Shown here: positions 1-36,370 of the stretch, piece by piece
Layout of the letters: the number at the start of each line of letters is the position of its first letter
Numbering within the stretch: position 1 is the stretch's first letter
Source: a virus
Taxonomy: Duplodnaviria > Caudoviricetes
Reading direction: 5' to 3' (one strand)
DNA length: 36,370 nt
IMG/VR virus record: IMGVR_UViG_3300020043_007103
Location: 1-36,370 of that record
Position numbers and translations under genes: made by a program
Notes under the pieces: model-generated
Databases searched by the model: none
What the model was told of the DNA's origin: nothing
Seen by the model: only the letters and a program-made list of their open reading frames with translations

Positions 1-21
1 CAAATACTGATGCCCCGCACC
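1..21. repeat. Terminal direct repeat (circular overlap), left copy
   Basis: CAAATACTGATGCCCCGCACC matches 36350-36370 at 20/21 positions. Confidence 0.9.
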
Positions 22-1395
22 CGTCGTATCATTAAGCGTAATTGCTGGGGTGGTCGTAGAGATACTTAGGATCGAAGCCGGAGTGGTCGTACCCAATCCG
101 AGGTAGTGCTTGGTCAGGTCGTAGTAGAATCCCGCATTATCCTGGCTATAATAAGTGCCGTTCGAGACGATGACCGATCCGGCCGTCATGACAGTACTCG
201 TGTTCGTGCCGCCGTTTGCCATGGGCAATACCCCCGTTACGCCGGTCGTTAATGCTACCTGCGCCCATGCCGGATTGTTCGATGATCCTGTATTCGAGAG
301 GTAACGTGTCGCATTAGTATCCTTTGCCAGTGCCGTCAGCGTATTAGCTCCCGAGGCATACAAGATATCTCCCTGCGTCAATGAGCTAAGGCCCGTACCA
401 CCGCTCGTGACACCCAACGCCGAGCCGAGCGTCAGGCTGCTTAATACTGTGGCGCCAGCCGAGAACGCACCGGCCACCGAAGCGTTGCCGGTCGTAGACA
501 CTGTCGTGGCATTAAAATTGGTCGTGGTAAGGCCAGCAGTCGTGACATTCGTAAACAAACCATTGGTTACCGTCAGATTCGTGCTAAAGAAATCAGTGCT
601 CGTAATCCGCGTGCTCGTGATGTTGGTGGCCAATAGATTCGTGACGGTAGCATTCGTTGAAAACAAATCAGTTGATGTCGCCCGCGTCGTCGTCACATTG
701 GTAAACAGGGCATTTGTCACTGCCATGTTCGTTGCTGTAATGCCCGAAAAAGCACCAGAACCAGCGGCCGTGAATGTGCCCCCCACATAGAACCCGCCTG
801 TAACCGTTGAGCTTGCGGCAGTCGTCGTGGCAAACGTATTGGTGCCGGTAAATGCGTTAGAAGCATTAAGCAAGGCAATATTTGAAGCGTCCGATAGGTC
901 GGCCGTTGAAAGTCCGCTGATAGCTGCTCCGGTGACGTCTAAGGATGTCGCTATGGTCTGGTTCGTACTCGAAACATTCGTGATGGTAGCATTGCTGCCC
1001 GTGATCGTGCCGATAGTTGCAAACGTGAAGTTCGTATTCGAGGCATAGAGCATGGGGAATGATCCGGTCGGTGCAGACAACAAAGACTGAATGGCCAAGG
1101 CCGCCGTCGACGTACCACCTGCGAACTGGATTGAATTTGTCGTCACGTTCCCGTTATTCGTCACGTCCTGAAACGTTGATGTCGTCCCCCCGCTTCCGGA
1201 TCCGCACCCCGTACAGGTACCGGAAATGGTGATGTTGCGAACGTAGATCGTCTGCCAGACGTTTGACGATGAACCGAGATCGTACGTATTCGTGGCTTCC
1301 GGCAAGACATTACGTTGGTATGTGGTTGTCGGCGCTGCCTGAACGCTTAAGACAGGTACAAGAAGCGCGATAAGGAAGAGTAGAATCTTCGTCAT
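1..1395 (-). CDS. Tail fibre/receptor-binding protein, N-terminal 465 aa (continues across the junction at 36349)
   Basis: Missing from the ORF track because no stop occurs before the edge. Hand translation from ATG 1395 is open to base 1: MTKILLFLIALLVPVLSVQA-APTTT. Contains fibre-like motifs LPEATNTYDLGSSSNVW, GGTGLSSLTQGDILYASG, VTGVLPMANGGT and LGLGTTTP, plus a T/N-rich 5-residue repeat. Confidence 0.85.
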   Translation of the reverse strand, partial: MTKILLFLIALLVPVLSVQAAPTTTYQRNVLPEATNTYDLGSSSNVWQTIYVRNITISGTCTGCGSGSGGTTSTFQDVTNNGNVTTNSIQFAGGTSTAALAIQSLLSAPTGSFPMLYASNTNFTFATIGTITGSNATITNVSSTNQTIATSLDVTGAAISGLSTADLSDASNIALLNASNAFTGTNTFATTTAASSTVTGGFYVGGTFTAAGSGAFSGITATNMAVTNALFTNVTTTRATSTDLFSTNATVTNLLATNITSTRITSTDFFSTNLTVTNGLFTNVTTAGLTTTNFNATTVSTTGNASVAGAFSAGATVLSSLTLGSALGVTSGGTGLSSLTQGDILYASGANTLTALAKDTNATRYLSNTGSSNNPAWAQVALTTGVTGVLPMANGGTNTSTVMTAGSVIVSNGTYYSQDNAGFYYDLTKHYLGLGTTTPASILSISTTTPAITLNDTTGAGHQYL

Positions 1396-1396
1396 A

Positions 1397-2254
1397 TTAT
1401 TCAGAATAGATAATAGTCAATGTCTGGCCAGCGGCGAGCGTGGTGGCTGCGGTGATTTCGTTCGTGAAGGTGATGGTGTGAGCGCTCGCGTTATGCACAT
1501 AATCAGTTGTCGGCCGAAACGCATTCGGAAAAGAACTAGATTGCACTGAGATAATCCGCCACATTGCCGGGAGAGAAAATACTTTAGTCGTACCATCGAG
1601 TGATGAGGAAAGGTCATAAAGTTTAACCATACGTCCACCAGTCGTGTTCCCCGAGCCATGACTCACAAAGTTCTTGCTCTGCAACACCCCGCGTAGGCCG
1701 TCTAACGCCTCTCGCAATCCTTTAATGGCCTTCATATCTAACCGTTCATCACCCTGTAACAGTTCCAAGGCATTACGGATCTCCGGACCGAGCTTAGGCA
1801 AGTCTTTCTCAATGTCCTCAATAACGGGAATGTGGGACTTTAGCTCTTCACGGGCAATGCTAGCTGCTTCCTGAGCGATAGCTTGAGGGTCTGGCAGTTC
1901 TAGAGCATCAAGTTCTGAGATTTTTGCCTCAACTTGGCCTAATTTTTCTGCCACCTGACCATCAATATCGCTTTGCTGGTACATTTTCTCGACGTGCTCT
2001 AGCGCCCATTTCCGCAGGTTCGGTATATGATTATCCTCTTTGATCTGTCGCACGGTATCTTTGTATAACTTCTCCATCTCGGAACGACGATTATCCGCTT
2101 GTTCTAGGTGTTTTTCAGTCAATTTCGTTAAATTCTCCTCGGCTTTTTTGATAAAATCGACAGCCAGCTTAAAACCCGCGAGAAATTCTTCTCGGGTCAG
2201 TCCTTCATCGGCGATCTCTATGAGTTTTTGCAATTTAGCGAGTTTGTCTGGCAT
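1397..2254 (-). CDS. Hypothetical virion-module protein (coiled-coil N-terminus, beta-rich C-terminus)
   Basis: 285-aa ORF abutting the fibre gene in the late operon. Confidence 0.75.
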   Translation of the reverse strand: MPDKLAKLQKLIEIADEGLTREEFLAGFKLAVDFIKKAEENLTKLTEKHLEQADNRRSEMEKLYKDTVRQIKEDNHIPNLRKWALEHVEKMYQQSDIDGQVAEKLGQVEAKISELDALELPDPQAIAQEAASIAREELKSHIPVIEDIEKDLPKLGPEIRNALELLQGDERLDMKAIKGLREALDGLRGVLQSKNFVSHGSGNTTGGRMVKLYDLSSSLDGTTKVFSLPAMWRIISVQSSSFPNAFRPTTDYVHNASAHTITFTNEITAATTLAAGQTLTIIYSE

Positions 2255-2327: not shown

Positions 2328-2777
2328 ATGAGAACTTTTCTAAAAGATAATTGGTTCAAAATAATACTGGTTTTGATTTTTATCGGTATAACTTTGGTGA
2401 TAGCTTATTATTATCTTTCGTATATTCCAGAACGAGACAGAGATAAGCGAATAGATGCTGCAATCGCGGCAGATCAAGAAAAGTTTGATAAAGAACAGAA
2501 AGAAAAGCGTGATTATATTGCAAAGCGTAAGAAAGATTGTTTTGATATATATGATAAGGAGAAAGAAAATTGGAATAATGTTTTAGGTCAGGAGTATGAC
2601 GCCGATTATGACGTTTGTTATGTAATCTATAGATCACAGCAAGGTGAGTGGGCCGGAAAAAATTGTAAACAATACCTACCTACTACCTCCACCCCAGTTA
2701 CCGATCCAATGATTTTAAGATTAATGTTTAATAACTATACGGATTGTTCTGAGAAACAGTTTAGAAAAGAATTTTAA
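2328..2777 (+). CDS. Membrane-anchored moron protein (single TM, 4 Cys); possible superinfection exclusion
   Basis: MRTFLKDNWFK followed by a hydrophobic helix; AT-rich; antisense to the late operon, with its own promoter. Confidence 0.8.
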   Translation: MRTFLKDNWFKIILVLIFIGITLVIAYYYLSYIPERDRDKRIDAAIAADQEKFDKEQKEKRDYIAKRKKDCFDIYDKEKENWNNVLGQEYDADYDVCYVIYRSQQGEWAGKNCKQYLPTTSTPVTDPMILRLMFNNYTDCSEKQFRKEF

Positions 2778-2789
2778 TCGTATTTTTAT

Positions 2790-2987
2790 ATGAACAGCTT
2801 TCTAAAAGAAAACTGGTTTAAACTAATAGCGCTTTTAATGATCGGTCTTATTACATTTTTTTGCATGGTCACATACATATTTGTTGATAAGAGATTGTGC
2901 TATCAAGCTGCGGAGGAGCAGGTCCAGAAATCCGGAAAAGTAATAATAGATCCGTCTAGCGACGACCCGCTTCATCTTTTTGACTAG
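2790..2987 (+). CDS. Small membrane protein with N-terminus paralogous to 2328..2777
   Basis: MNSFLKENWFK plus TM helix; ends DDPLHLFD; 3' end overlaps the convergent gene by 32 bp. Confidence 0.7.
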   Translation: MNSFLKENWFKLIALLMIGLITFFCMVTYIFVDKRLCYQAAEEQVQKSGKVIIDPSSDDPLHLFD

Positions 2988-4546: not shown

Positions 4547-7282
4547 TTAAGTATAATTTTTAAGTTGTCGTAGAGCGGTAGCAAGCTCGCCGTTCTTACC
4601 GAAGAATCGGTTATACACGGCTTTCTTCACTTGAGGAGTGGAGTTCGCAAACCTTCTCCCGCCATTCCATCGTTCGTTATAGATTGCCTTTATCAATTCT
4701 TCCTCAGATGCATTTTTACCTACCCGAGCGAGCGCTTTGTTAATCACGTCTGTATTTGCTCCGTGTTGCACTCCGGTAGAGAAGATGACCTCGGAAAGAA
4801 CTGGCGTATGTTCTGCTAGATCCAGCCCAGCTTGAGCAGCTTTGACGGCTAATGGCTCGAAGTGGGTTTTAGCGATGTACTGTTCTTGAGCCTGAGCGAA
4901 TCCCTGAGGGTCTTTTTGGGCCACCTCTTTCCATTTGTTACGGAACGCTTCGGAATTAAAGGGGATTCCCGAAAATTCCTTAGCGTAAGGCGACTGCTGC
5001 ACGAACCTCTGCGCATTGTTGTGTGCCAACTGATACGTTCCATAGCTCCACCCACCTGTTGAGTCATAGCCTATCGCCCCCGGATTTCCAGAACTCTCGT
5101 ATTTCTGAGAGAGCTGACCGAGCGAGGCTGCATTCGTGTCGCCTCCAACTGAATTAAAACCTAATCCCAATGGATCATTTGCGTTTCCTCCAGGAAAGAA
5201 ACCCAACCCTAAAGGATCATTTTGTCCAAAGAAACCGATATATTCTTTCCATGCTTGTCCAACGCCCAACACGTTAGCTTGAGATGTATACCGGGCCTTA
5301 CGTGCTTCTACTCCCGTTTCCCAAGCCTTTACTAGATCTTTAGTAGCAAAAGCCAGTTCTCTTGCGGCATCAGGAGAAATTACCTGGCCTTCTGCAACCC
5401 GTGTTAGCGAAGTCTTAAAGCGATCAAAGAAACTGGTAGTTTGATTGGCCAAGGCCACCTCACCTTCCCTGACTGCACTTTCGGGATCGAGATTTTTAAC
5501 AAACGTATACAGAGATTTCAGTTGGTTTGTTGCTGAATTCGGATTTGCTAACACCTGGTCAGCAATTTCGTTAAGACCCTGTCCTTTATCAAACGCTTGG
5601 ACAAGAGCATCCTTCTGATAGTTATTCGTAATATTCAGGAATTGAGCTTGTTGGGCAGGGGTGAGGCCGGAACCATTTGCGATAGTTGAAGCTAATATTT
5701 TTCTATTCGCATCCTGATTTTGGTATTCCGTAAAGCTCATCGGAGTACGTCCAGCTTTCTTTTCTGAATCAGCGTAGAATTGATACTCACCCACTATCCC
5801 AGAACCATACTGAGTTTTCTGATTTTCCAAAGCAGCTTTAGCACCCAAGATCGGCCCCGCCACCTTAATCGCCTCATTAAACGATTTAGCCGAGCTGATT
5901 TTACTCAAAATATTCTGGTCGGTTACTCCTGCGCCAATAGCTTCAAGCACAAGGTTCTGCACCTTCGTCTCCTCAGCTTTCTGTGCGGCAATCGCTTCCT
6001 TGCGCTGATCCAACAACAACTGCTGCGCCTGGGCTGCGATCTTTTCTTCTTTATTCAATGTCGGCTGAAGCGCATTAAGCTGAGCCTGGTATACGCCAAG
6101 CTGTGCTTCGATCGTTGAGTATTTAAGATCAATTGCCCGGTTAACCGTATTCTGCGCCGTCTCGATCTGACCCTGTAAACCCTGCGCGCGGGCTTGTAAC
6201 AAACCGATGTCCGAAGCTTTTGCATTTAGAATCGCCCGCTCAGCACCAATTATAGAATTCATCGTAATCGGTTTCCCCTCCTGAGACTTGGCGAGTGCGT
6301 CATACTCAGCTGATTTACTCAGAATCTGAGCATTAATATCAGCAAACTGCTGACGTAACTGCGGAAGACCGGCGCTTTGTTCGCTCGTTAATTGATCCGC
6401 TGCCCGTTTAGCGTTTTCTCCGACAAGCGAAGCCATCTGGTCAAGCAAGGTCTGTTGTTTTTTTTCCGTTTCTGTTTCCGGTGGGGTAAGGGACTTGATG
6501 ATTTCAGCTAAGCTCGTCGTGGCACCGGCAATCATGGAACCTGCCTGGTCTAAGCCGCTCGGCGTAGCGCCCGGTAAACTGATCGGCGTTTCTTTTGTTA
6601 GTTTTTCCGGCGTAATCGTATTTGTTGGTTTCGGGTAGAGCGAAACACCCGGAACATACTTACCAGCCGGTACATACACTTCTTTATACCCGTCATTCGT
6701 ATCGTATCCTTTGATTAAACCAGGTCCTGGTTTCGAGGAAATCAAACTACGATTGTTATTCACCGGCCCATCAGCCGTAACTACGCCTAACGGAGCTTGG
6801 GGCGTACCCATCACTGAACCGGGAGCATAGAGCTGTCCGGGTTTAGCAGTTTGACTAGGCCCTTTGATTGCAGCCTCAAGCACTGACTGCGGGGCAGCCG
6901 TATATGACGAAGGGACACCTTGCGAGGTTGGATTATTGATCCCGAGCATCGACAAAGCCTGCTCACGGGAAATACCTGAGATCGACGGATTCCAATTGGC
7001 AAGCGCATTGTAAACATCTTTGCTGTTTGGAAGCGTATACCCCGAAAAAGCTGACTTATCGCCCGGAGCTTGACCGTACAGGAAGCCGTTTTTATCCATC
7101 GGAATCCCGGCAGCCTGCGCCTGCTCCGGCGTGATGTTGTTGATTAAGGCCCGGTTAGCAAGGTCTTGAATGCGGGTGTTGAAAGCGTTGACGTCCGCTC
7201 CCGGCTGCAACGCAACCGAGTTACCGAACTTATCGGTTTGTGGTACCCAGGTGTCTGAAGCGATTTGATTTGTTCCTGCCAT
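4547..7282 (-). CDS. Large ejection/internal virion protein with C-terminal VgrG3-like lysozyme-fold peptidoglycan hydrolase
   Basis: Gln/Ala coiled-coil core. C-terminal LSQKYESSG..GGWSYGTYQL..F..KWK..A..DP..F..AQ..YI..THF..STGVQHG pattern resembles the V. cholerae VgrG3 C-terminal muramidase family. Start moved to ATG 7282. Confidence 0.75.
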   Translation of the reverse strand: MAGTNQIASDTWVPQTDKFGNSVALQPGADVNAFNTRIQDLANRALINNITPEQAQAAGIPMDKNGFLYGQAPGDKSAFSGYTLPNSKDVYNALANWNPSISGISREQALSMLGINNPTSQGVPSSYTAAPQSVLEAAIKGPSQTAKPGQLYAPGSVMGTPQAPLGVVTADGPVNNNRSLISSKPGPGLIKGYDTNDGYKEVYVPAGKYVPGVSLYPKPTNTITPEKLTKETPISLPGATPSGLDQAGSMIAGATTSLAEIIKSLTPPETETEKKQQTLLDQMASLVGENAKRAADQLTSEQSAGLPQLRQQFADINAQILSKSAEYDALAKSQEGKPITMNSIIGAERAILNAKASDIGLLQARAQGLQGQIETAQNTVNRAIDLKYSTIEAQLGVYQAQLNALQPTLNKEEKIAAQAQQLLLDQRKEAIAAQKAEETKVQNLVLEAIGAGVTDQNILSKISSAKSFNEAIKVAGPILGAKAALENQKTQYGSGIVGEYQFYADSEKKAGRTPMSFTEYQNQDANRKILASTIANGSGLTPAQQAQFLNITNNYQKDALVQAFDKGQGLNEIADQVLANPNSATNQLKSLYTFVKNLDPESAVREGEVALANQTTSFFDRFKTSLTRVAEGQVISPDAARELAFATKDLVKAWETGVEARKARYTSQANVLGVGQAWKEYIGFFGQNDPLGLGFFPGGNANDPLGLGFNSVGGDTNAASLGQLSQKYESSGNPGAIGYDSTGGWSYGTYQLAHNNAQRFVQQSPYAKEFSGIPFNSEAFRNKWKEVAQKDPQGFAQAQEQYIAKTHFEPLAVKAAQAGLDLAEHTPVLSEVIFSTGVQHGANTDVINKALARVGKNASEEELIKAIYNERWNGGRRFANSTPQVKKAVYNRFFGKNGELATALRQLKNYT

Positions 7283-7286
7283 AGAA

Positions 7287-9830
7287 TTAAGCAAATGAGT
7301 TATTCATTGCGACGATTGAGTATCCATCCCCACCATCTCCACCTGGCTGCCCACTTCCAAGAGCTGCACTTCCGGCGACTGCCCCACCACCACCTCCACC
7401 GCCGCCGCCGACATTAGTAGTGCTAGTGGTCCCACCTGTACCTTTACTTGTATTGATCGTTCCGGAATTAGCGGTCAAAGAATTATAGAGAATTACGACA
7501 CTCCCACCTCCACCTCCGCCTCCACCGGCTGCATTCGTCCCGTTTCCGCCATTCGCGCCATTGGCGTTGATCGTTCCGGTAAAATTTAGAGTTCCCTTAC
7601 ATTCAAGATAAAAAGCTCCACCACCACGCCCACCAGTTCCACCCGTTCCTGAACCAGTCCCACCACCACCACCACCACCACCGACAATAAGATTAACGAC
7701 CTTAAAAAATCTTGTTGAATAAGAATTAACAGCGGTTCCGGCAGATCCACCCGTACTCCCAGAAGTAGAAGCTGCCCCCCCACCACCGGCGCCAGCAGTA
7801 AAAATATTCCCAGCCCCATTAGTTCCTGCCGATCCGGGAGAAGTCCCGGCACTTGCTCCGGCCCCGCCAGAACCACCAAGACTTGAGATTTCGATGCAAG
7901 GAACTGTAGAAGATGTGATGGTTACGTTTCCATTGCATTTGAAGATGATGATCGTGCCTGAGGCATGTGGATTTGAGAAAGCTATTTTCCCCGTACCTGT
8001 AATTGAAATCGAACTGTAGTTTTTAATGAAAATCGCTGCACCGGCCAAATCAATCGTAGTAGTTCCTGAGCTAACCGAAAGCGCACCATCACTTCCATCA
8101 CCGCCGAAAGCGCCGATAGTGGTTTGAACATAGCCGTTAATAACCATGTTCCCGCTTGAAGTGTCGTAATGGAAATATTTACCTGTGCTGTAATTACCAA
8201 TGAAAATACCGTAGGTATCCGAAGCAAACGGACCAATACCGTTAAGATTGCCTAAGCGACACGCCTCAAGATACCCGTCAAACGCAACGCCGGTGCGTGA
8301 GAATACTGAGTAATACGGCGAGTTTGTCCCCTCTCCGATCAAACGCAACCAACCGCCGCTATAGGTGGAAATAGAATCACTTTTACCCTGCTTAGCGATC
8401 GTACAGCCCTTGTAAAACAGAGGCGTCTCACCCGAGTACATGGTCAAAGCTTGACCAGAGGTAACGCCAACGTTATAGATACGGACCTCATCAAGATAGC
8501 CGGTAAAATAGTTCCCAGCCGCCAAAGAATTACGACCAAAGTACAAATCACCGGCTGCATAAGCGATCGGGCCAGCGAAGGTTGAGGAGACAGCAAGTGA
8601 TACGCCGTTTCGATATACGGTAAGAACACCTCCGTTACTCCACGTGCACACAAAATGTGTCCACGTGTTTGTTGGAACAGAATTAGCACCACAAAAGACG
8701 TAGGTATTGGCGGTCCCATCCCCTAACCCAAACTGCAGTTGGTTCGTGTTATCAACCGAGATGTCATACCCCTTAAACGCGAAGAAATCCTGACGATGGA
8801 TGATCTGCGAATATGCTGAACCAGTCCAGTAAATCCAAAAAGCAAAAGAAATTGCCGTAGTTGGTTTGAATGCCGCGTTATCAGCAACCGAAACATACGA
8901 ACTCGATCCGTTAAAACTCAACGCCTTACCATACCGACCATCAACATATGAACAATTAACCTCAGTGCCGTGATTAGCGCTAACTGTGCTATCCCGCGCT
9001 GACGTACCAGTATTTTCGTCAAATCGCCAAAAACCTTTAAGGTTGGAATTAGCCGCCGCGAACGTGACAGCGAAATCACGAGTTACGCGATACGTTGGAG
9101 CACTCGAAGCATCAATCACTCTAAACCATTCTTCTTCTACGCCGGTCGAAGCGAGTGCACGGATAAGGAGAAGATCATTAACCGCGAACGTCGAAGTATT
9201 TTTAGTCGTCAATGTCGTCCCATCAGCCGAAAGGTCGGCATCGAGAACATCGGCGTTGGCAACCATGAGCTGTCCGCCAACGCACGAAACAACATCATAC
9301 TGGAACGCCACGCCTTGCATGAGCCCGCGTGCTTTGATATTTTGCGCTTCAATGAGCGTCGGAGAGATCGTAAACCCGTCTAAATCGGCGGAGTAGTTCG
9401 AGCTTTGAATACGTAAATTCGCTCCGTCAAACGTGATGTAATTTCCCGATGTGGGGCCAAGACGAATGATCGAATTAGCTGAATCTAAAAGGATGTTAGA
9501 ACTTGCCTCGGTAGGACCGCTTGAAATCGTATTCGTATTGATATACCAATTCGCGATCCTTCCTCCTCGGGTTAAAATAGCCACGCCATAAATATTTCCA
9601 TTGCTGTCGAGCATCCAACCTGCAACATCGGCGACGAAGTTACTCGACTTCATCGTTCCGTCATACATGATTGTCCCACCAGCTGCCGGTAAAAGATTGC
9701 TCTTTGCTTCCGGAACGGTCGGAGTATTAGTTTGCGGTTTCTCTGCCGTCGATTCCGAAGAACCATAAGACCCTCCCGGTAAATCGGTCGGATAATAATT
9801 GTATTCGGGTTTGTAGGCAGAATCGGACAT
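7287..9830 (-). CDS. Tail spike/fibre with LamG (concanavalin A-like) domain and glycine-rich C-terminus
   Basis: LKGFWRFDE..G..ARD, GKALSFNG, WTHFVCTW, YRNGV and FTGYLDEVRIYN are classic Laminin_G_3 motifs; poly-Gly tail. Confidence 0.85.
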   Translation of the reverse strand: MSDSAYKPEYNYYPTDLPGGSYGSSESTAEKPQTNTPTVPEAKSNLLPAAGGTIMYDGTMKSSNFVADVAGWMLDSNGNIYGVAILTRGGRIANWYINTNTISSGPTEASSNILLDSANSIIRLGPTSGNYITFDGANLRIQSSNYSADLDGFTISPTLIEAQNIKARGLMQGVAFQYDVVSCVGGQLMVANADVLDADLSADGTTLTTKNTSTFAVNDLLLIRALASTGVEEEWFRVIDASSAPTYRVTRDFAVTFAAANSNLKGFWRFDENTGTSARDSTVSANHGTEVNCSYVDGRYGKALSFNGSSSYVSVADNAAFKPTTAISFAFWIYWTGSAYSQIIHRQDFFAFKGYDISVDNTNQLQFGLGDGTANTYVFCGANSVPTNTWTHFVCTWSNGGVLTVYRNGVSLAVSSTFAGPIAYAAGDLYFGRNSLAAGNYFTGYLDEVRIYNVGVTSGQALTMYSGETPLFYKGCTIAKQGKSDSISTYSGGWLRLIGEGTNSPYYSVFSRTGVAFDGYLEACRLGNLNGIGPFASDTYGIFIGNYSTGKYFHYDTSSGNMVINGYVQTTIGAFGGDGSDGALSVSSGTTTIDLAGAAIFIKNYSSISITGTGKIAFSNPHASGTIIIFKCNGNVTITSSTVPCIEISSLGGSGGAGASAGTSPGSAGTNGAGNIFTAGAGGGGAASTSGSTGGSAGTAVNSYSTRFFKVVNLIVGGGGGGGGTGSGTGGTGGRGGGAFYLECKGTLNFTGTINANGANGGNGTNAAGGGGGGGGSVVILYNSLTANSGTINTSKGTGGTTSTTNVGGGGGGGGGAVAGSAALGSGQPGGDGGDGYSIVAMNNSFA

Positions 9831-12377: not shown

Positions 12378-13124
12378 CTAGGATCCTTGAGTGCGATTGA
12401 CACGGATCGTGACTTTCGCCGACATACCAGCATTAGCGGTAGTGCTGACGAAAAGCGTTTCACTACCAACGCCGCTGGCGACGCAATTGAAATAGGGTTT
12501 GCTCGGGCCGATCGAAACTTTCGCGACCGTACCGCCATCAGCCAAACCGCCATTCGCGGTCGTCAGGTTGTTTTCGACTAAACCAACCGAAGACGTGGTA
12601 ATGGTCGCTGTCAGAAGGTTCATCGAGGGCAACGCATACTGCGTCGTAGCCGGGCCGCAGTTGGCCTGGAATGTGCTCGTCGGAGCGCCGCTCACTTGGA
12701 TTCTGACAAGATCAACCGTCGAAGAAGCGCCGGTCCAACCACGTCCGCTGTCATCGGTTCTAACGACGATATCTCCGGATGTGGAGGTCGGCATCTGAAA
12801 CGGATTGATGAACGAAATAAGCGTCGTCGAGGCTACCGAACCCGTGAACGTTCCAACGAGGTGGTACGTACACACGTTATTCACGCAATGATACGGACCT
12901 ATAACGTCAGCAACGTTCGTCGCGCCAAGCTGCATATCCGGCTTAGAGTCAGATACCTGCTCGAACGCTTCGATGTAGTCACCGGACACATTTTCAATCA
13001 CGACACGCGGTGCTTGGCTGGAGTAACTCTGGTACGCACTAACTGCGCCAACCACAGAGAAAACCCCGAGTACGATCGCGACCAAGACTGCCGGAGAGAT
13101 CTTTGATGTAATTTTTTCCAACAT
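12378..13124 (-). CDS. Beta-rich protein with N-terminal signal peptide/TM, downstream of the capsid gene
   Basis: PAVLVAIVLGVFSVVGAVSA hydrophobic segment ending in V-S-A; Thr/Ser/Val-rich remainder. Confidence 0.75.
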   Translation of the reverse strand: MLEKITSKISPAVLVAIVLGVFSVVGAVSAYQSYSSQAPRVVIENVSGDYIEAFEQVSDSKPDMQLGATNVADVIGPYHCVNNVCTYHLVGTFTGSVASTTLISFINPFQMPTSTSGDIVVRTDDSGRGWTGASSTVDLVRIQVSGAPTSTFQANCGPATTQYALPSMNLLTATITTSSVGLVENNLTTANGGLADGGTVAKVSIGPSKPYFNCVASGVGSETLFVSTTANAGMSAKVTIRVNRTQGS

Positions 13125-13474: not shown

Positions 13475-14341
13475 TTAGCTAAGAGTGATATCGACCAAGA
13501 GCGCAGCTTTCTGAGCCCAGACTTTGGCACCGATATTCGCCCATACCGCGATTTCACGACCGGTCTTAGCAGTCACTTTCTTTTCGTCGTACTGGATACC
13601 GCGCGGAGCAGCATAGGTAGCGATGTTCTTCACACCGAACAAACGATGACCGGAATTAGTGGCGGTCAACGTACCGAGCGTAGCGGTAACATAGGTGCTA
13701 TCACGGACGCAGTAGATATCAACGCCCATGTAATGACCGATCAAACCGTTGTTAAGCGCGGAATCCGCATAGCTATAACCACTTGCCACCTGCGTCTGGA
13801 TAAGACCCGGAAGATCAGAATTCTCAAGAACAAGGAACAGGCCCTTGTACATGTCCGAGTACCCAGCAACCTTAGCGATAAGATTCGAGAAGATCGTCGC
13901 GATATTCGCGGCGGTCTGGAATCCACCAACCGGCGTGGTATATGCGCCCGTAGCGCCATCAAGAACTTTGTTCAGAACGAACTGATCGGCTTTCACCGCA
14001 ACCGCAGCCGTCATGTCGTCAACGAACGACTGGTACAAATCAGCGCGAGAAAGCGTATCTTCAAACTCGAAGAGGTGGACGCCGTACGTTACCTGATCAG
14101 TGACTTCGCACTTGTCATCGGTCGTCGTCGCCGTTGATACCGAGTAGGTACCGGCCATGGCGGCGATAGCGGCAGTCGCGCCGGTCAAGTACGGATTAGA
14201 GATGTATTTCGCTTCAGTACGATCGACCATGAAAACTTTTTCGGATACCAAAGCCGAACGAAGCTGCAAGTCAAGTTTCGTCTTGAAATATTTTATGCGC
14301 CAGACTTCAGATAAAGTACTGGTGCCAATAGTGTTTGCCAT
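13475..14341 (-). CDS. Major capsid protein (probable HK97 fold, P22 coat-like)
   Basis: 288 aa, directly after the scaffold; AVAVKADQFVL spine helix, NGLIGHYMGVDIY and GAKV C-terminal patterns. Confidence 0.8.
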   Translation of the reverse strand: MANTIGTSTLSEVWRIKYFKTKLDLQLRSALVSEKVFMVDRTEAKYISNPYLTGATAAIAAMAGTYSVSTATTTDDKCEVTDQVTYGVHLFEFEDTLSRADLYQSFVDDMTAAVAVKADQFVLNKVLDGATGAYTTPVGGFQTAANIATIFSNLIAKVAGYSDMYKGLFLVLENSDLPGLIQTQVASGYSYADSALNNGLIGHYMGVDIYCVRDSTYVTATLGTLTATNSGHRLFGVKNIATYAAPRGIQYDEKKVTAKTGREIAVWANIGAKVWAQKAALLVDITLS

Positions 14342-15535: not shown

Positions 15536-17365
15536 TTATTGATTAGCCATTGCCATAGGTGGCATCTGGCCTGCCATCGCCATCATGGGATTAGCAGGTT
15601 GAGTAGATGTAACTTGTAATTCGAGCGGGCTCACCCCTCCAGCCAAACCAATAATCTTGTTGAAGGTGAGTTTGGCGTTCGGATCCTGTAAGACCATCGG
15701 GTTACCAGCGATAGTCTTAAGGACCGTTGTAAGAGTCGTCATGGCACCTTGCACGTCCTTAGTCTCTCCAGTGATATCGATATCAACTTCCCACTCTAAA
15801 TCCTTGAAGATATCTTTCCACGTTTTAGAATCAACTTCAGACGGTTTAATGAAACGTTGGTTGCCTTGTAAGGTCTCTTGTAGTTCTGACTGAGCTTGTG
15901 CGGCGTCAAGTGCTTCGATCCCCGGATCATAGATCTGCCCTGTCAAAACTGCCTGTTTCTTTTTCTGGTTCATCCGACGATTTACTTCGTTCGGGAGATA
16001 CATGCTATCGATCTGCTTGATCTGATGATCTTCAAGGATCGCCGAGATTTCTTCTTTCGTATCAAGTTGTTTTTTAAACGACGGGATAACGTAGCGTCGC
16101 AGTAATTCTTCAAGCGCCAAACCTTTATTCTCAGTCATGGTCTCGAAGAGTGAATGGCTTTCTTGCAACATCGCTTGCGTCTGTCTCCAGGCACTACCAC
16201 TAGGCGGGTTCTGCCCCATCATTGCTTCGGATATACCGTTGATTTGGCTTGCTACGCTTTGCCATGTGGCTTGAAAAGACTGCATGGCCCCGATATCTGC
16301 TTTATTGTTAAGCTGCGCCATAGGGCCTTTGGCCGGGTCGTAAGTGAGGATGTCGCCATTTTCGATATTCACGAGCACATTCTGACCGACGAGTGAGGCA
16401 TCAGCTGTTTGGAAAATGATTTTAGAGGCAAGATCGAGTTGATCCTTCATTTGTTTTTGCGTGTGATTGACCATCCATTGCGCTTCAAAAAGGTTCTTTA
16501 CTGCTCCACCGGCATACGTTTGACCTTCTTTCTTAATAAGATGCGTCAACATGTACGGGTCCTGTGCTTCACGACCGGAATACAAGGTATAATCATCGAA
16601 GCTCTTATCATCATTCTCTAAGAACGTGATGACGTGCATTTGTTGGAAGTATTCATCTTCATCACCCTCTTTAACGTCTTCACCTTTACTCAACTTATAT
16701 TGAGCCAATGACATTTCACCGTGCACTTCATAAAGCGGAATATACCCAGCTTTATTATCGATTATCTGACCTCCGATCGTTTTACGAGTTGTCTTATTCT
16801 CAAGAAGTTTTTTAACCAAATCCTTGTTGTAGGTTTTATTCTTCTTGAGCTGTGCCGGAGTAAACCAGAGCTTTTCAATCTTAATGTTGTTCTCAAAATC
16901 AACCGGATCGACGATCATGTTATTCCAATCCATGACCTTACAATGCAATTCACCATTTTTCTCAACAGACTTGATGAGGGACGATCCATGCGTCGCAAGA
17001 CACAATCCCCAATCATTAAGAAATTCACCAAACCACTGCTTTTTCATCCATTCCTGAAGCTTTATCGTGGCAAGAAAAGCGGCAGTAACATTAGCCTCTT
17101 TGCTTGATCTGATGATGATATTCTTACGATCCAAATCCGTCGCACGGAACCAAATATTGCGCGAGGCAATCGAGATATTAAAGAATGGCTTATCTCTCCC
17201 TAAAGAATCCGTATCGCCCGAAGTATGCTTGGAATTGATATACGCCTCAGTCTTATTAATATCCTCACGCATGCTAAACGCGACGTACTTCGATGCAGTA
17301 GTCATCCCATCTTTATCGTTTTTTTCAGCTTCTCGTACAATCTCTTGTACGGTTTGAATTTCCAT
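15536..17365 (-). CDS. Portal protein (P22-like)
   Basis: 609 aa after the terminase; KPFFNI, NMIVDP, LYEVHG, INGISEAMMGQ motifs and a Q/M/P-rich tail. Confidence 0.85.
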   Translation of the reverse strand: MEIQTVQEIVREAEKNDKDGMTTASKYVAFSMREDINKTEAYINSKHTSGDTDSLGRDKPFFNISIASRNIWFRATDLDRKNIIIRSSKEANVTAAFLATIKLQEWMKKQWFGEFLNDWGLCLATHGSSLIKSVEKNGELHCKVMDWNNMIVDPVDFENNIKIEKLWFTPAQLKKNKTYNKDLVKKLLENKTTRKTIGGQIIDNKAGYIPLYEVHGEMSLAQYKLSKGEDVKEGDEDEYFQQMHVITFLENDDKSFDDYTLYSGREAQDPYMLTHLIKKEGQTYAGGAVKNLFEAQWMVNHTQKQMKDQLDLASKIIFQTADASLVGQNVLVNIENGDILTYDPAKGPMAQLNNKADIGAMQSFQATWQSVASQINGISEAMMGQNPPSGSAWRQTQAMLQESHSLFETMTENKGLALEELLRRYVIPSFKKQLDTKEEISAILEDHQIKQIDSMYLPNEVNRRMNQKKKQAVLTGQIYDPGIEALDAAQAQSELQETLQGNQRFIKPSEVDSKTWKDIFKDLEWEVDIDITGETKDVQGAMTTLTTVLKTIAGNPMVLQDPNAKLTFNKIIGLAGGVSPLELQVTSTQPANPMMAMAGQMPPMAMANQ

Positions 17366-17367
17366 AC

Positions 17368-17769
17368 TTACGGACGGTAGGTCGTAATGAATTGGCCGTT
17401 AAAACCAGTCGGAACCTGGATGCTTAAACCCTGAAACAAGTTAGTATCGAACGTGTACGTGCCAGCCGGAGTGGAAGTCGGGAATACCACAATCGTGGTC
17501 GTTGCTGTGGTCGTCACCGAATCAGTGTCATAGATGGTCAAGCCACCAACTGCCGATGTGCTAACAATGACAACAGAACCGAGCGTGCCAGGAACTGACG
17601 TAATAACGTAGGTGCCAGCGGTTGCACCAACTGCCGTGGTCGTTGCCTGATAGTTGTTACCGATCGATACACTGCCGATCATGTCTGGTTTATTTTCCTT
17701 AGAAACAAAGAATACTAAACCGACTAGGGCCACTACACCGATGAATAAAACAAGAATTTTATTAAACAT
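17368..17769 (-). CDS. Small beta-sandwich protein with N-terminal TM/signal anchor, between terminase and portal
   Basis: MFNKILVLFIGVVALVGLVFFVS followed by a Thr-rich beta domain. Confidence 0.75.
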   Translation of the reverse strand: MFNKILVLFIGVVALVGLVFFVSKENKPDMIGSVSIGNNYQATTTAVGATAGTYVITSVPGTLGSVVIVSTSAVGGLTIYDTDSVTTTATTTIVVFPTSTPAGTYTFDTNLFQGLSIQVPTGFNGQFITTYRP

Positions 17770-17771
17770 AG

Positions 17772-19205
17772 TTATTTACAGCTATTAGTAGCTAAATTTC
17801 TTTTATTCTGTTCAAAACGACGTATCTGTTTCTCGATGACTGGCTGCAAGTTCTCTTGTCCGTAGGCATCCTTCTTCAATTCAAACCACATACGGAAGAT
17901 GATCGAATCACCAATGTCAGGACTTCTACCAAGTGCGATTTTAACTTCGTCTTTCGGTTTGATCTGTAACTTGCCATCCTTGTCCGCATCCTTATGTCGT
18001 AGCAGAGCAGAAAGCTCCTCTAGGATCAGGTCACGATATTCCGGTACCGCGAAGGACAACTTATGTTCATTGATGAGCGATGCCAGCTTGAATGCACATT
18101 GCGTTTTCAGGTTCTTGAAGTTCGTTTTCGGTGCAAAGTCATCGATGTACTTGATTCGTGAAGAGATTTCAGCGAGTGTTGGTAAGGGCGATGAGTTCGC
18201 GACGAATCCTTTGACCCCCGAAAGATGATCGACAACTCCCCCACCAATGCCGTCTTCATCGATAATGATGTTGGACCACGGTATATGCTCGATCGCCGCA
18301 AAATCCTTGATCTTCTGCTCGGTATTGAACGTATCCTGTTTATAAAACTTATCAAGTCGGATAAGTTCCAACCCCTCCCAAAACCCGAACACCGTACTAT
18401 CCCGACCACTACGGGCAACATCAACAGTTAAATATTTTTGATTATCTTTTACGATCGTATTCGAGAACGTATCAGTCAGCGCGTCATAGGTGATGAGACT
18501 ATCTTGATCTTCGTCGTAATCCCATCGTCCCTCGAACAAACGCTGTCTACGGACGCTGTCTTTCTCATTCTTAAGCGTCTCGACATAGTCCTTTGGAAGG
18601 TACGAATTGTCCGTTGCAAATGCTTTAATGAATTTGCGCTGTGGCGGTAATTCGCAATCAATGAACTCCCGTTTCATCCACCCCTTTTTAGGGTTGGCAG
18701 TGATGAGGAGTTTTTTCTTTAGTTTGTATTCATCGTTCTTCCAACGACCGATTGATAACCAAAGGTTAGATTTAGCGGCTTCGGAAACTTCGCCCCCCTC
18801 CTCAATCCATCCTTTAGTCATCTGCATTGAGCCAAAACGCTCGAATAACGGATCAGATGGCTGTTCTTTACAAGCGATCAAGAAAACTTTTGATTTGTTA
18901 TATAACGTGAAAATATTGTATTGGCCATCGAATTTGGCGTAATCCTCAAGCGATAAACCTAGCTTGTTAAATACTTCGTAAATTGTCGGAATCGTGAATT
19001 TGCGCAGGTCAGTCAATTCCTGGCGAGCAATGAAATAATGAGTCTCCGGATAGATCAGAGCATCGTTGAAAATCAGGAATGCACCGAGGAAAGACTTACC
19101 ACCGCCTTTCGCACCACCATACAAAATCTGCTCAGTTACCGAATCATTCCAGTAACGAGCCGCTTCAATTTGCTGTGGAATCTTGGTCTTGAATGTCAGA
19201 ATCAT
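17772..19205 (-). CDS. terL: Terminase large subunit
   Basis: PQQ adenine-binding motif, Walker A YGGAKGGGKS, Walker B WIEEGGE, ITANP coupling motif, nuclease motifs VDVARSGRD and SPDIGDS. Confidence 0.95.
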   Translation of the reverse strand: MILTFKTKIPQQIEAARYWNDSVTEQILYGGAKGGGKSFLGAFLIFNDALIYPETHYFIARQELTDLRKFTIPTIYEVFNKLGLSLEDYAKFDGQYNIFTLYNKSKVFLIACKEQPSDPLFERFGSMQMTKGWIEEGGEVSEAAKSNLWLSIGRWKNDEYKLKKKLLITANPKKGWMKREFIDCELPPQRKFIKAFATDNSYLPKDYVETLKNEKDSVRRQRLFEGRWDYDEDQDSLITYDALTDTFSNTIVKDNQKYLTVDVARSGRDSTVFGFWEGLELIRLDKFYKQDTFNTEQKIKDFAAIEHIPWSNIIIDEDGIGGGVVDHLSGVKGFVANSSPLPTLAEISSRIKYIDDFAPKTNFKNLKTQCAFKLASLINEHKLSFAVPEYRDLILEELSALLRHKDADKDGKLQIKPKDEVKIALGRSPDIGDSIIFRMWFELKKDAYGQENLQPVIEKQIRRFEQNKRNLATNSCK

Positions 19206-19892: not shown

Positions 19893-20111
19893 TTAATTAG
19901 GGTATCCTTCGGGATTAGTCAGGCCTTTCGTAGTCCACATAACAACTTCTTCAAGCTTGCTCATGGCAACCGAAAACTCCGAGCTAAGAGCAATTTCATC
20001 GTGTTTCGGAATCAAATCCCACAATTCCTGAGCTTTAACCTTGAACTCCTTAACCTTGGCCTTAGCTTCATCGCTTACAGGCGTATATTCCTGACGAAAT
20101 ACATCGGACAT
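19893..20111 (-). CDS. Acb2/Tad1-like cyclic-nucleotide sponge protein
   Basis: 72-aa helical hairpin: EYTPVSDE..K..K..ELWDLI..EFSVAMSKLEEVVMWTTKGLT matches the family pattern Y..LS..E / RE.SLA.TKLEEAVMWA.K. Confidence 0.75.
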   Translation of the reverse strand: MSDVFRQEYTPVSDEAKAKVKEFKVKAQELWDLIPKHDEIALSSEFSVAMSKLEEVVMWTTKGLTNPEGYPN

Positions 20112-32807: not shown

Positions 32808-33338
32808 TTACGGCGTGCAGCCGAAGAGCCAGGAGCTCACGAACATGTTCTTGGCGTCGCTGCCGTTGTAGGTCATGATCGGGAGCGGCGCGAGCAGGAC
32901 GCCGTCGAGCCGGATCTCGGCGACCTCGTTGTCACCGGGCGTCTGACCGGGCAGTCCGGCCACCATGCCGTTCGGGAGCGCGAACTTCATCTCCATGCCC
33001 TGCGGATAGACCCCGGTCGGGAGCATGACGCCATCGAGCGCCTTGGCGTTCGTGAACGTCAGGCCGCAGACAGCCGAACCGGGCACCGTAAAGGTCAGCC
33101 CGGTGGCCTTCGAGACGCCGGTGACGTACTTGTAACCGGGATCACCGGCGGGAAGTCCGGGGCCGTAGTAGCCCGCGTAGACCGTGATGCCGTCGATGCG
33201 GGGCTTGATCTCGACAGTGACGCTGGTCGGGGTGAGCGCCTTCACGCTCGAAGAGGTGGTCGGTGGAAGGGCGGTTTCGGCTCCGCAACCCGCCATGACG
33301 GCGGTACAGAGCAGGAACGAGGCAACAAGTCTTCGCAT
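32808..33338 (-). CDS. High-GC lipoprotein moron
   Basis: MRRLVASFLLCTAVMAG-C lipobox; AGGAG 7 nt upstream of the ATG; sampled lines are 65-75% GC. Confidence 0.8.
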   Translation of the reverse strand: MRRLVASFLLCTAVMAGCGAETALPPTTSSSVKALTPTSVTVEIKPRIDGITVYAGYYGPGLPAGDPGYKYVTGVSKATGLTFTVPGSAVCGLTFTNAKALDGVMLPTGVYPQGMEMKFALPNGMVAGLPGQTPGDNEVAEIRLDGVLLAPLPIMTYNGSDAKNMFVSSWLFGCTP

Positions 33339-33405: not shown

Positions 33406-33633
33406 CTACACTACGCCGATGAATTTATCGTTATCATCGGTCAAGAAATTCTTAAGCAAATACCCGATCATCGCAAGTGATCCAGTAGTAAAAATGCTTT
33501 CCAGATCTTGCATGGTCAGATGGAAACCATGGGCTTTGATAACCGATTCAAGCGTAGTCAGTACCGCAACAAGTACGGCGACAACTAACCCTTTAAACAG
33601 ATCTTGTGCATTGAGTTTGAAGATAGAGCTCAT
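33406..33633 (-). CDS. Putative holin
   Basis: 75 aa with two hydrophobic segments; adjacent to the lysin-position gene. Confidence 0.7.
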   Translation of the reverse strand: MSSIFKLNAQDLFKGLVVAVLVAVLTTLESVIKAHGFHLTMQDLESIFTTGSLAMIGYLLKNFLTDDNDKFIGVV

Positions 33634-33634
33634 A

Positions 33635-34738
33635 TTATCGTTTACTAATTAACATAATTAAAGCGTCACGCCATTGTGATTTATCGAGGTCTTTCATATA
33701 TGGCCAATAATCAGACTGGGTAATGTCCATGGCTGGACCATTCGGGATGAGTTCAAGCGCTTCGTGGTTAATCTCGATATAGCCTTTACTGCGACCACCA
33801 AAGGCCAGGAAGGTGTCCATATCCGGAAATGCCATCTTGGTATCCTTAGTGATGAAGTAAATAGCTCGGCTATCTTTGTCTTTTACGAATTGGCCCTGGT
33901 AATTGGCAATAACTTTTGCTACTTCCGGCGGCATATCAATTTGCACGTATCGTTCATAACCGACTTTATCGAGAAAATCCATATCGATATAGAAGTACCC
34001 TTTATCACCCCAACCGGTACCGTAGGAATTCGGCGCCTTATACACTTTCCGACCCTGATAGTCGAAGTCATACCCATTAAGATCAAAGGCATGACCACCA
34101 ACAAAGAAACCTTTAATCATCCAGATAAGCCACGGCCAGCTGAATCCCCCGCCCATGTTAAAGCCCTGATACCAAGGCATACCGGTATGCAGGATTCGGC
34201 CTTCATCAAGCATCTTAAGCGTCTCGCTCCGGTTCTTGGTATAGAAGTAGCTTTTGCTTTTGTGCAGCGCGGCGTTATCCATCACTCTCTGCGTCAGCAG
34301 GTTCGCATCAGAATACTGTTCCCAGTCAACATCAGCATCCGGCAAAACACCCGCCTCCGGAATCCCGTATTTCTGGATACATTTCTGAATATCACGTAAG
34401 GCTGAGAATCCGTTACCTTGGACATAGCCCTCTCTCCGAGCTATGGCGACAAGGCCCCGGACGCTGAGTTCTACCCCCTCGTCCTGTTCTTTCTGCATCG
34501 TTGCCGAATTCATGACGCAGGTATTGAAGGAACGCTGATTTTTAAGCCATTTGATCGGAATCTCATGACGGGTATGTTTAGGCTGGTATTCACCCCAACC
34601 AAAGATACCGAGTTTGAAATCACGATCGTCTTCTTCGCCACGGAGTAAGCCTGTACCGAGTGTTCTACCGTCCCGATCTTTCTCACCCCAAAGACGTTGC
34701 CGTATGGCCTGAAGCCATGGAAAAAGTTGCGGGATCAT
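33635..34738 (-). CDS. Papain-like (C1) cysteine peptidase, putative lysin
   Basis: NQRSFNTC (oxyanion Gln and catalytic Cys), GGHA (His), NSYGTGWGDKGYFYI (Asn); extra C-terminal domain VK....AIYFI....K.AFP....F..FG. Confidence 0.85.
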   Translation of the reverse strand: MIPQLFPWLQAIRQRLWGEKDRDGRTLGTGLLRGEEDDRDFKLGIFGWGEYQPKHTRHEIPIKWLKNQRSFNTCVMNSATMQKEQDEGVELSVRGLVAIARREGYVQGNGFSALRDIQKCIQKYGIPEAGVLPDADVDWEQYSDANLLTQRVMDNAALHKSKSYFYTKNRSETLKMLDEGRILHTGMPWYQGFNMGGGFSWPWLIWMIKGFFVGGHAFDLNGYDFDYQGRKVYKAPNSYGTGWGDKGYFYIDMDFLDKVGYERYVQIDMPPEVAKVIANYQGQFVKDKDSRAIYFITKDTKMAFPDMDTFLAFGGRSKGYIEINHEALELIPNGPAMDITQSDYWPYMKDLDKSQWRDALIMLISKR

Positions 34739-35260: not shown

Positions 35261-35857
35261 TTAATCACCAGCTAAGCTTAAGGCATCGAACGTATTAGCG
35301 GCCGGAACCGTGCCGATGACGTCAATGCTCACACCGATGTTTTTAACTGAACTGTCATACCGCGTATTTGGTTCTATATTAGAAGCCGTAGAATACCAAT
35401 ATTGTTCTGAGGGGGGGCTTGCATATTCGTTATAGAACCTGAAGAAATCAGTCACTGCGCTCGTTCGAGAGATATATACCCAATATCGCGTACCGGAATT
35501 AATCGTACTACCGCCACTTAGATTGATCGTCGTGGTACCAGCATTAAAACTGACGCTTGAGGCACTACCGTAACCGGTCGATGTTGATGCTTTGTCGGCC
35601 CGGATCGAAACGTCGCCTACAGGCGATCCGCTAATAGACTGAACGCGCAACAAGATCTGCGTTGGTACGCACGATGTCGTCGGTGTAAACGAGAAGGCAC
35701 CGTTATCATTTGGTGCGTTCCAGTTCCACCCCGTATTATTTCCCGTACTCGTATAGCTATAACACGTCACGGCTTGGGCCATCTCTGAACCGAGAAACGG
35801 AGCAATGATAACCGCTAATGCGACTAGTATCTTTAATCCCCTCTTTTTGATGTTCAT
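35261..35857 (-). CDS. Beta-sandwich protein with Sec signal peptide, downstream of the tail fibre
   Basis: MNIKKRGLKILVALAVIIAPFLGSEMAQA (n/h/c regions ending A-Q-A); FSFTP..GTRYWVYI; 2 Cys. Confidence 0.8.
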   Translation of the reverse strand: MNIKKRGLKILVALAVIIAPFLGSEMAQAVTCYSYTSTGNNTGWNWNAPNDNGAFSFTPTTSCVPTQILLRVQSISGSPVGDVSIRADKASTSTGYGSASSVSFNAGTTTINLSGGSTINSGTRYWVYISRTSAVTDFFRFYNEYASPPSEQYWYSTASNIEPNTRYDSSVKNIGVSIDVIGTVPAANTFDALSLAGD

Positions 35858-35860
35858 AGG

Positions 35861-36370
35861 TTAGTAATTTAAGCTTGAGCCAGCGTAATACTTACTCGAT
35901 GAAGCGTTATACACGAGCGTCACGATATCGACCTTGCTTGCCGTGGTCGTCCACGTCGGTGTCGAACCGCCTGAGAAAAGAACTGCTGCCGGGAATGTCG
36001 GAGCACGTGAGCCCGTGCCATCCTGACGGATATAGATCAGATAGCGGGCACCGTCTTGCGGGTTAGACAAGGTAAACGTCGTGCTGGTCCCCATGTGCAC
36101 GTCAACCACATTCCCGTTGTTGAAGTTAATCGTCGTCGCATTCGTACCTGCGGCCACATACTGCGTGCGCGAGAAATACTGGCCACTGGCGGCCATAGCC
36201 GGATTAGAGCTGTCGTTGACATCTACGCGGGCTACGGGCGTTGAAGTATTGATACCGATGAGACCGGTTCCAAGAATCGCGAGGCGTGATGTCGAGGAGG
36301 AAGCGTCATACACGTCCAGTGTCCGGGCGCTCAGCGTGCCATTACGGATCAAATACTGATGACCCGCACC
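35861..36370 (-). CDS. Tail fibre, C-terminal part (joined to 1..1395)
   Basis: In frame across the junction (..GAGHQYL-IRNGT..); TINFNNGN..TFTLSNP..IRQDGTGSR..FP..P..T..KVDI fibre tip-like domain. Confidence 0.85.
   Translation of the reverse strand, partial: GAGHQYLIRNGTLSARTLDVYDASSSTSRLAILGTGLIGINTSTPVARVDVNDSSNPAMAASGQYFSRTQYVAAGTNATTINFNNGNVVDVHMGTSTTFTLSNPQDGARYLIYIRQDGTGSRAPTFPAAVLFSGGSTPTWTTTASKVDIVTLVYNASSSKYYAGSSLNY
36350..36370. repeat. Terminal direct repeat, right copy
   Basis: CAAATACTGATGACCCGCACC; differs from 1-21 only at 36362. Confidence 0.9.

Follow-up and report, generated by a model that had tools for sequence, protein, structure and literature searches.

According to the textbooks, a tailed phage is put together entirely inside the cytoplasm. 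What, then, does an export signal mean at the start of a tail-fibre gene? The question is raised by the IMG/VR virus record IMGVR_UViG_3300020043_007103 (Duplodnaviria; Caudoviricetes), analysed here as a complete record of 36,370 bp (the window), in which a fibre gene on the minus strand (1..1395; residues 1-465) begins with a hydrophobic leader and runs off the window end. A sequence-only reading had taken its product for an exported tail fibre, perhaps disulfide-bonded and glycosylated at N-x-S/T sequons, within an export-dependent assembly route. Our results support the export, the fibre identity and a wider export-dependent module with leader-bearing cement-like proteins, and give the N-x-S/T glycosylation weak support at best. 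On balance, we lean towards a two-part tail fibre, of which the protein would be the distal half, exported and then attached to the virion at lysis.

The first 20 residues of the fibre (1336..1395, minus strand) form a predicted Sec signal peptide for signal peptidase I (SPase I), with Lys3 in a basic n-region, a hydrophobic core with a 10-residue Kyte-Doolittle mean of 3.7, and Val at -3 and Ala at -1 of a site at residue 20, so placed that cleavage is probably after Ala20. Leaders were called by our own heuristic (n-region, hydrophobic core, small residues at -3/-1), not by SignalP, and the same heuristic found no membrane segment in the fibre other than the leader. Neither the twin-arginine pair (RR) of a Tat signal nor the lipobox Cys of a signal peptidase II (SPII) signal was found in it, the first Cys being residue 61. 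The open reading frame (ORF) remains open from 1395 to position 1 (465 aa), its ATG lies 2 nt past the stop of the upstream gene, and the next in-frame start, a TTG at residue 31, is beyond the leader. Eight of the 26 named genes were positive by the heuristic. Four are the late leader genes; of the others, three encode small membrane proteins and one is lipoprotein-like. None of the core head and tail genes was flagged.

The fibre homologues examined were the best 120 of 827; the majority of these match the internal shaft repeat only, and 104 are without a leader. All three orthologues that align from the N-terminus carry one. In five of five pairs, the leader is less identical to that of the window (16-57%) than are the next 45 residues (47-78%), and this faster divergence of the leader relative to the mature start is the pattern of a cleaved signal. 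Judged from these alignments, the leader is real and kept as a property across orthologues, and export of the fibre is very probable. The signal peptide described by the sequence-only reading was thus recovered and is kept by homologues. Its CTGC motif is also present (residues 61-64; 1204..1215, minus strand), holds the only two Cys of the protein, occurs in several orthologues too and likely forms a disulfide, and the three other signal-bearing late genes that it had counted were found at 12378-13124, 17368-17769 and 35261-35857.

The fibre gene stands in the tail module, and the C-terminal part of the protein, with the tip domain, lies at the opposite end of the window (35861..36370, minus strand). 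Positions 1..21 overlap 36350-36370 with one synonymous mismatch, and the two fibre parts are joined there in frame. The record is classed as linear in IMG/VR, with a CheckV completeness of 100%; the fibre has 627 aa if the genome is circular, a length that assumes circularity, and no homologue among those examined spans the join. Residues 1-465 matched nothing in Pfam, PHROG or NCBIfam, and a shaft repeat module at about residues 325-405 (181..423, minus strand) is common to mostly leaderless phage proteins. The last 169 residues gave weak PHROG tail-fibre matches (E 9e-5 to 8e-4). Modelled as a homotrimer, the tip scored 0.96, compared with 0.00 for the best of three controls, with contacts agreeing by at least 98% between runs and a pLDDT of at least 93; the mark applied is passed by 21 of 30 solved homo-pairs and by 0 of 23 single chains but was calibrated on two copies, and the pass may owe to likeness to solved fibres. 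The same tip ends leaderless proteins in six of six other viral loci, and it is the only domain that the fibre has in common with phage C72C1. A search of the ESM Atlas yielded only feature leads below 0.9, with a TM of at most 0.32. The tip is predicted to be a trimeric phage-fibre domain, which is in line with the tail-fibre identity and the fibre-tip-like domain of the sequence-only reading.

The fibre does not stand alone. SP198 (35261..35857, minus strand), directly after it, bears a leader and two Cys and has no family match. SP248 (12378..13124, minus strand) is a leader-bearing jelly roll encoded two genes after the major capsid protein, and its top three fold matches are phage cement proteins, i.e., KHP40 7dou (Z 8.4, rmsd 3.6, 111 residues aligned; Foldseek E 6e-4), the Ralstonia GP4 capsid chain 8h89_J (Z 8.3, rmsd 3.6, 133 aligned) and the Pam1 capsid chain 7eel_H (Z 7.8, rmsd 3.2, 116 aligned). 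Its homologues in related phages retain leaders. Considering the jelly roll and the gene position beside the capsid gene, we regard SP248, on fold matches of moderate strength, as cement-like. SP133 (17368..17769, minus strand) is a leader-bearing single jelly roll encoded between terminase and portal. Its family numbers 1,057 clusters (E up to 0.001); all of the best 150 matches have a hydrophobic leader, and in 147 of them the residue aligned to -1 is small. The nearest folds to its model (pLDDT 77) are YomS (Z 8.9), XepA (Z 8.7), an HFTV1 turret chain and the KHP40 cement protein, all at Z 7.8-8.9. In one related locus (L017:9776-11273), the SP248-type gene is tandemly duplicated.

To what could an exported fibre attach? 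An ordinary tail fibre has a leaderless N-terminal docking domain; in the window fibre the leader stands in that place. The adjacent gene, g285 (1397..2254, minus strand), encodes a leaderless coiled-coil protein that we take as the putative virion-side anchor, with a C-terminal domain of about 85 aa (1400-1657, minus strand) as the candidate dock. A g285-type gene followed by a leader-bearing gene was found in 16 of the 17 loci with downstream DNA, i.e., in 9/9 from the first scans and in seven of eight new loci reached through the g285 C-terminal domain; the exception, L083, has no open frame ahead of the contig end. Eight of the first nine came via the fibre, and in loci not found through the fibre the order holds in 8/9. 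Two first-scan loci were read manually: L025, where a shadow ORF overlaps, and L024, where a TTG lies upstream. Short-repeat matches or unrelated phages (L026, L028-L033, L038-L046) were left out of the synteny counts; L075, L080 and L081 duplicate contigs met before, L035-L037 hardly differ from one another, and the g285 homologue of L063 lies at a contig end. One locus (L025:9215-15678) has two pairs of g285 and leader-bearing fibre genes.

A close relative (G001; capsid 63% identical, g499 68%) has a different arrangement. There, the g285 coiled coil (35% over 207 aa, E 5e-36) forms part of a leaderless fusion protein of 550 aa, in which the C-terminal domain is missing. The genes that follow are also leaderless, two of them with LamG domains, and lack A-[ST]-[ST]-T. 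The SP133 and SP248 slots of the same genome retain their leaders. The 550-aa protein is a candidate fibre by its position and a repeat motif only. Searches of the PDB by sequence with profiles of the fibre, SP133, the g285 C-terminal domain and g499 gave no useful match. The fusion in this one relative suggests a division into cytoplasmic anchor and exported distal fibre, in which g285 would be the tail-bound proximal half made in the cytoplasm and its C-terminal domain would receive the exported distal fibre.

We propose that, late in infection, the host Sec machinery and SPase I would export the fibre and cut it after Ala20. Outside the cytoplasmic membrane, it would fold, trimerise and form the CTGC disulfide, and might be O-glycosylated by the host at [AG]-[ST]-[ST]-T. 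The core short-tailed particle, including the g285 coiled coil, would be built in the cytoplasm; with the opening of the membrane at lysis, the fibre would bind the g285 C-terminal domain through its conserved mature N-terminus, and the cement-like SP248 and SP133 would coat the capsid. The docked fibre would then act in host recognition. Entry of the fibre into the virion by such a late docking step seems to us somewhat more probable than its absence.

An alternative, which we consider unlikely, is that the exported proteins never join the virion and stay with the infected cell, on its surface or close by, where they would act as adhesins, as receptor decoys or as a shield against superinfection. 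Signal-peptide trimeric fibres are known from a cell surface, namely the MAT proteins of Bdellovibrio, as described in PMC10769870, and the tip region of the window fibre weakly matches one of them by sequence (Bd2133, E 0.018). Besides, the best folds of SP133 include XepA and YomS (Z 8.7 and 8.9), prophage proteins not listed as capsid parts, and the virion fibre could then be g847 (7287..9830, minus strand), a leaderless LamG-containing tail protein and cytoplasmic fibre or spike candidate that serves as an internal control. Against this stand the fixed morphogenesis slots of the genes (after the capsid gene, beside the portal gene, at the end of the tail module), the cement proteins at the head of the SP248 fold list, and the leaderless fused version in the same slot of the close relative. 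No integrase was seen among the genes scanned, which makes a long-lived surface role in a lysogen less likely. In addition, three proteins of the cultured Cellulophaga phage phi18:3 (KC821620, Pachyviridae), gp085-087, have leaders and are annotated in GenBank as 'structural protein, MS/MS', i.e., as particle proteins, and nine other proteins so annotated had no leader when checked. Between virion and infected-cell surface, the virion is favoured by the phi18:3 annotation and by the contrast of split and fused versions.

Glycosylation of the exported fibre is a separate matter. The counts of N-x-S/T sequons given by the sequence-only reading, 18 in the first 465 aa and five past the junction, are exact. 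These 23 compare with 15.7 in globally shuffled sequence (p 0.015) and 16.8 when 30-residue blocks are shuffled (p 0.04), and the 18 of the first 465 aa with 12.8-13.5 (p 0.05-0.09). The excess over shuffled sequence is only about 1.4-fold, and about two thirds of the count is composition, as the caveat of that reading had anticipated. Across 15 leader fibres, there are 203 sequons versus 164 expected (1.24-fold, z 3.8), and in 17 leaderless tail proteins 137 versus 136; the excess persists with [AG]-[ST]-[ST]-T held fixed (203 versus 156-159). The leaderless set was hand-picked for the motif comparison because six of 16 motif matches in the earlier 'leaderless' set lay in two SP248 homologues with long N-terminal calls.

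That the host N-glycosylates the exported fibre at these sites through an oligosaccharyltransferase, which could coexist with late docking, draws on this excess, and we think it improbable. The effect is small, and five of the 15 leader fibres are at or below expectation. It is absent in the SP133 family (198 versus 189, 1.05) and in the four leader proteins of the window (28 versus 24.5, p 0.22). The PglB sequon has an acidic residue at -2 (D/E-x-N-x-S/T), a form found at two of the 23 fibre sites and four times, versus 5.1 expected, in the relatives. Moreover, Thr/Ser-Asn pairs are equally enriched in leaderless homologues, which points to repeat structure. A small real N-x-S/T excess is possible.

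The motif [AG]-[ST]-[ST]-T tracks the leader far better than N-x-S/T. It occurs 108 times versus 28.6 expected in the 15 leader fibres, above expectation in each of them, and 11 times versus 10.2 in the 17 leaderless tail proteins. The window fibre has six sites versus 2.4 (p 0.03), the four leader proteins of the window 11 versus 3.6, and ten leaderless ones four versus 2.3. In sets fetched after the motif had been defined, seven later fibres gave 49 versus 10.9. Among 150 representatives of SP133, 304 sites were found versus 28.7, 244 of them at three aligned positions and hence not independent. A motif tied to export across unrelated folds would resemble a host glycosylation sequon; we give glycosylation at [AG]-[ST]-[ST]-T an even chance, and a structural role is possible. 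Thr/Ser-Asn was also tried as a leader marker and rejected (1.34 versus 1.31 in the first set, 1.08 versus 1.05 in the hand-picked set).

Leaders might also remain uncleaved by SPase I and tether the proteins outward, with later release by a second cut at hydrophobic-Gly↓Ala/Ser, possibly by the phage C1 peptidase, or with the particle leaving together with membrane; this we regard as quite unlikely. In the SP133 family, a variable linker leads from the leader to a conserved [LVFI]-G↓S (Gly in 121/150, Ser in 138/150), SP248 has an invariant Gly behind a low-confidence linker, and in several fibre orthologues an additional linker with xG at its end precedes the conserved AP start. A leaderless papain-like (C1) peptidase is encoded nearby (33635..34738, minus strand), a candidate endolysin or release protease. 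However, small-x-small↓AP comes directly, with no linker, in the window fibre and several of its orthologues, the Gly after the linker may be structural, and the peptidase adjoins a holin candidate (33406..33633, minus strand; a 75-aa membrane protein named for position and hydrophobicity only) and may simply be the endolysin. As an observation in itself, hydrophobic-Gly↓Ala/Ser stands where a variable linker gives way to the folded domain, in exported proteins of three families that are not related to one another, and could be a second processing site, with the leaderless C1 peptidase encoded nearby (window 17368-17769, 12378-13124 and 33635-34738; L073, L077, L079 and L082). Last, the fibre might be an ordinary cytoplasmic tail fibre whose hydrophobic N-terminus either serves as a helix for assembly in the cytoplasm or is an artefact that is never translated; this is very unlikely. 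Such fibres do normally dock via their N-terminus, but here the fast-diverging leader keeps its basic N-region, hydrophobic core and small -3/-1 residues, the same leader type stands on three folds that are not related, the charge is greater on the N-side than on the C-side in 103 of 150 SP133 relatives (reversed in 11), the ATG follows the upstream stop so closely, and the motif and paired Cys co-occur with the leader.

Several points weigh against late docking of an exported fibre. The support comes from genes and models, and the leader heuristic also marks plain membrane proteins and three shadow ORFs. The anchor role of g285 and its dock are drawn from synteny and one fusion, and the C-terminal part of the fused 550-aa protein found no match in Pfam, PHROG or PDB and reached E 0.16 against the window tip. 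The second leaderless tail protein, g847, could bind the receptor alone. The SP248 model is weak (pLDDT 63), fold Z values of 8-9 are barely above the 7-8 typical of unmatched models, and of three virus records at least 90% complete in which SP133 was sought only one matched. [AG]-[ST]-[ST]-T was picked after the alignments had been viewed (the A form first, the G form later), and the homologues are not independent. The mass-spectrometric detection in phi18:3 may be co-purification, and it is known here from the GenBank annotation only.

As to the host, a Shine-Dalgarno-like motif precedes six of 43 genes, compared with about 10% at random positions. Exported phage fibres of the Bacteroidota type have Gln after the leader and an excess of D-[ST]-[AILVMT], the O-glycosylation motif of that phylum. 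In the window families, Gln after the leader is absent from the mature starts, and D-[ST]-[AILVMT] is depleted (36 versus 47 in fibres, 64 versus 90 in the SP133 family), although the terminase (17772..19205, minus strand) is nearest to those of Bacteroidota phages, at 33-37% identity. The terminase slot varies among close relatives with a common capsid and portal (17772-19205 compared with L010, L011 and L002), and the terminase is therefore a poor marker of host or kinship here. SP133 was not found in 401 Bacteroidota genomes, in a search without a positive control and hence weak, and a GTDB scan for the host returned a spurious 16-residue match only. Our guess is Patescibacteria, to judge by the sparse use of Shine-Dalgarno sites, the look of the small membrane proteins and the richness of the exported proteins in Ala-Thr-Ser-Thr. 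Many viruses have been predicted for Patescibacteria, and the available passages of that report do not contain 'signal peptide' (PMC12960796); nor does 'signal' occur in the available text of a study of CPR phages (10.1101/2022.11.22.517103). In unrelated phages, some with a long-tail gene order, we observed clusters of leader-bearing genes in the tail region, many with Gln after the leader (L026:7847-11570, L028:2932-11285, L029, L030:9365-13092 and L032:7935-11454).

The remaining genome is that of a tailed phage. The minus strand encodes the terminase, a portal-like protein (15536..17365; leaderless, named by size, position and a weak connector match), a scaffold, the major capsid protein (13475..14341; leaderless), adaptor- and nozzle-sized genes, g847, two ejection-type proteins, g285, the fibre, SP198, the papain-like peptidase and the holin candidate. 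Tape-measure and tube families had no match among the window genes, and on this and the gene order we consider the phage probably short-tailed. The capsid, portal and SP248 proteins matched no cultured phage. One ejection-type protein (4547-7294, minus strand; 915 aa) ends in a VgrG3-like muramidase domain (E 3e-43), and a host with peptidoglycan is thus implied. Immediately upstream of the packaging genes lies the gene (19893-20111, minus strand) for a protein with the Acb2/Tad1 hairpin domain (PF24729, E 9e-10, above cut-off), which is likely an anti-defence nucleotide sponge. Two small membrane proteins, alike at their N-termini, lie on the opposite strand within the late operon (2328-2987, plus strand), in a stretch of low GC (36%), and have five close homologues. 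The 176-aa lipoprotein-like gene (32808-33338, minus strand; lipobox Cys18) is among the few genes with a Shine-Dalgarno motif and may be a recent import. A 258-aa protein with a long Ala/Tyr/Asp tandem repeat (23221-23997, plus strand) has three PHROG matches whose function is unassigned in PHROG.

If the exported fibre and cement proteins do join the particle, a conserved branch of phages whose cement and distal fibre pass through host secretion would add a post-lysis or lysis-coupled step to assembly. Phage parts would gain disulfides and host glycans, with consequences for camouflage, stability and adhesion, and many 'secreted hypothetical proteins' in phage late operons would be explained. 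The split and fused versions in close relatives offer a direct structural test, with the anchor domain and the mature fibre N-terminus, and the leader-linked [AG]-[ST]-[ST]-T may belong to a host modification system not described so far and might serve to mark the host. The furthest-reaching picture, which we put forward tentatively and think doubtful as a whole, is of a very large uncultured lineage, probably of Patescibacteria, with a two-compartment virion: a cytoplasmic core and anchor, onto which an exported, disulfide-bonded, [AG]-[ST]-[ST]-T-glycosylated cement and distal fibre would be snapped at lysis. If true, this would be a tailed virion coated with host sugars, and its proteins would reveal a new bacterial O-glycosylation motif.

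Known systems share parts of this arrangement. Fibres of the T4 gp34-37 type are likewise divided into a proximal part, which docks on the tail, and a distal trimer of its own that bears the tip, but both halves are cytoplasmic there, whereas here the export leader is confined to the distal half. Filamentous phage (Ff) pIII and pVIII are virion proteins with Sec leaders that are added outside the cytoplasm, but Ff extrudes single-stranded DNA through the membrane without lysis and has no terminase, portal or HK97-type head. Jelly-roll cement proteins (KHP40 7dou, Ralstonia GP4 8h89 chain J, Pam1 7eel chain H, BPP-1 3j4u chain H) and the HFTV1 turret (8qpg_TD) resemble SP248 and SP133 in fold and in position beside capsid or portal genes, and differ in that SP248 and SP133 have leaders, a point for which only the HFTV1 paper was examined among them. 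Its available text places the turret base and head on the capsid and does not contain 'signal' or 'secret' (10.1101/2024.12.09.627619). We found no paper on leaders of tailed-phage virion proteins, nor on a Patescibacteria glycosylation motif or [AG]-[ST]-[ST]-T, in a search that left subscription papers and bioRxiv supplements outside.

A likeness in architecture exists with the MAT fibres of Bdellovibrio bacteriovorus (Bd2133, PDB 8ond), which combine a signal peptide, reported for all 21 MATs (PMC10769870), with a trimeric, beta-rich shaft and tip resembling those of phage fibres. MATs are adhesins of the cell surface with genes on the chromosome; the window fibre, on the other hand, is phage-encoded in the tail module of a 36-kb genome, has no S74 chaperone match, and is paired with a leaderless coiled-coil gene. 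A profile of the N-terminal orthologues, compared with the PDB with the domain of about 130 aa after the MAT signal peptide in view, matched nothing, the presence of that domain in the PDB being unchecked. The fibre would work like a two-part tail fibre with a MAT-like distal half and is not a member of the MAT family. A cultured counterpart is phi18:3, a tailed phage whose leader-bearing gp085-gp087 are annotated as structural from MS/MS; Gln follows the leader there and not here, a comparison of the N-termini revealed no sequence relationship, and the record is silent on leaders and gives no sign of a split anchor. As a cultured stand-in, phi18:3 makes the central claim, that tailed-phage virion parts can be exported before they join the particle, testable.

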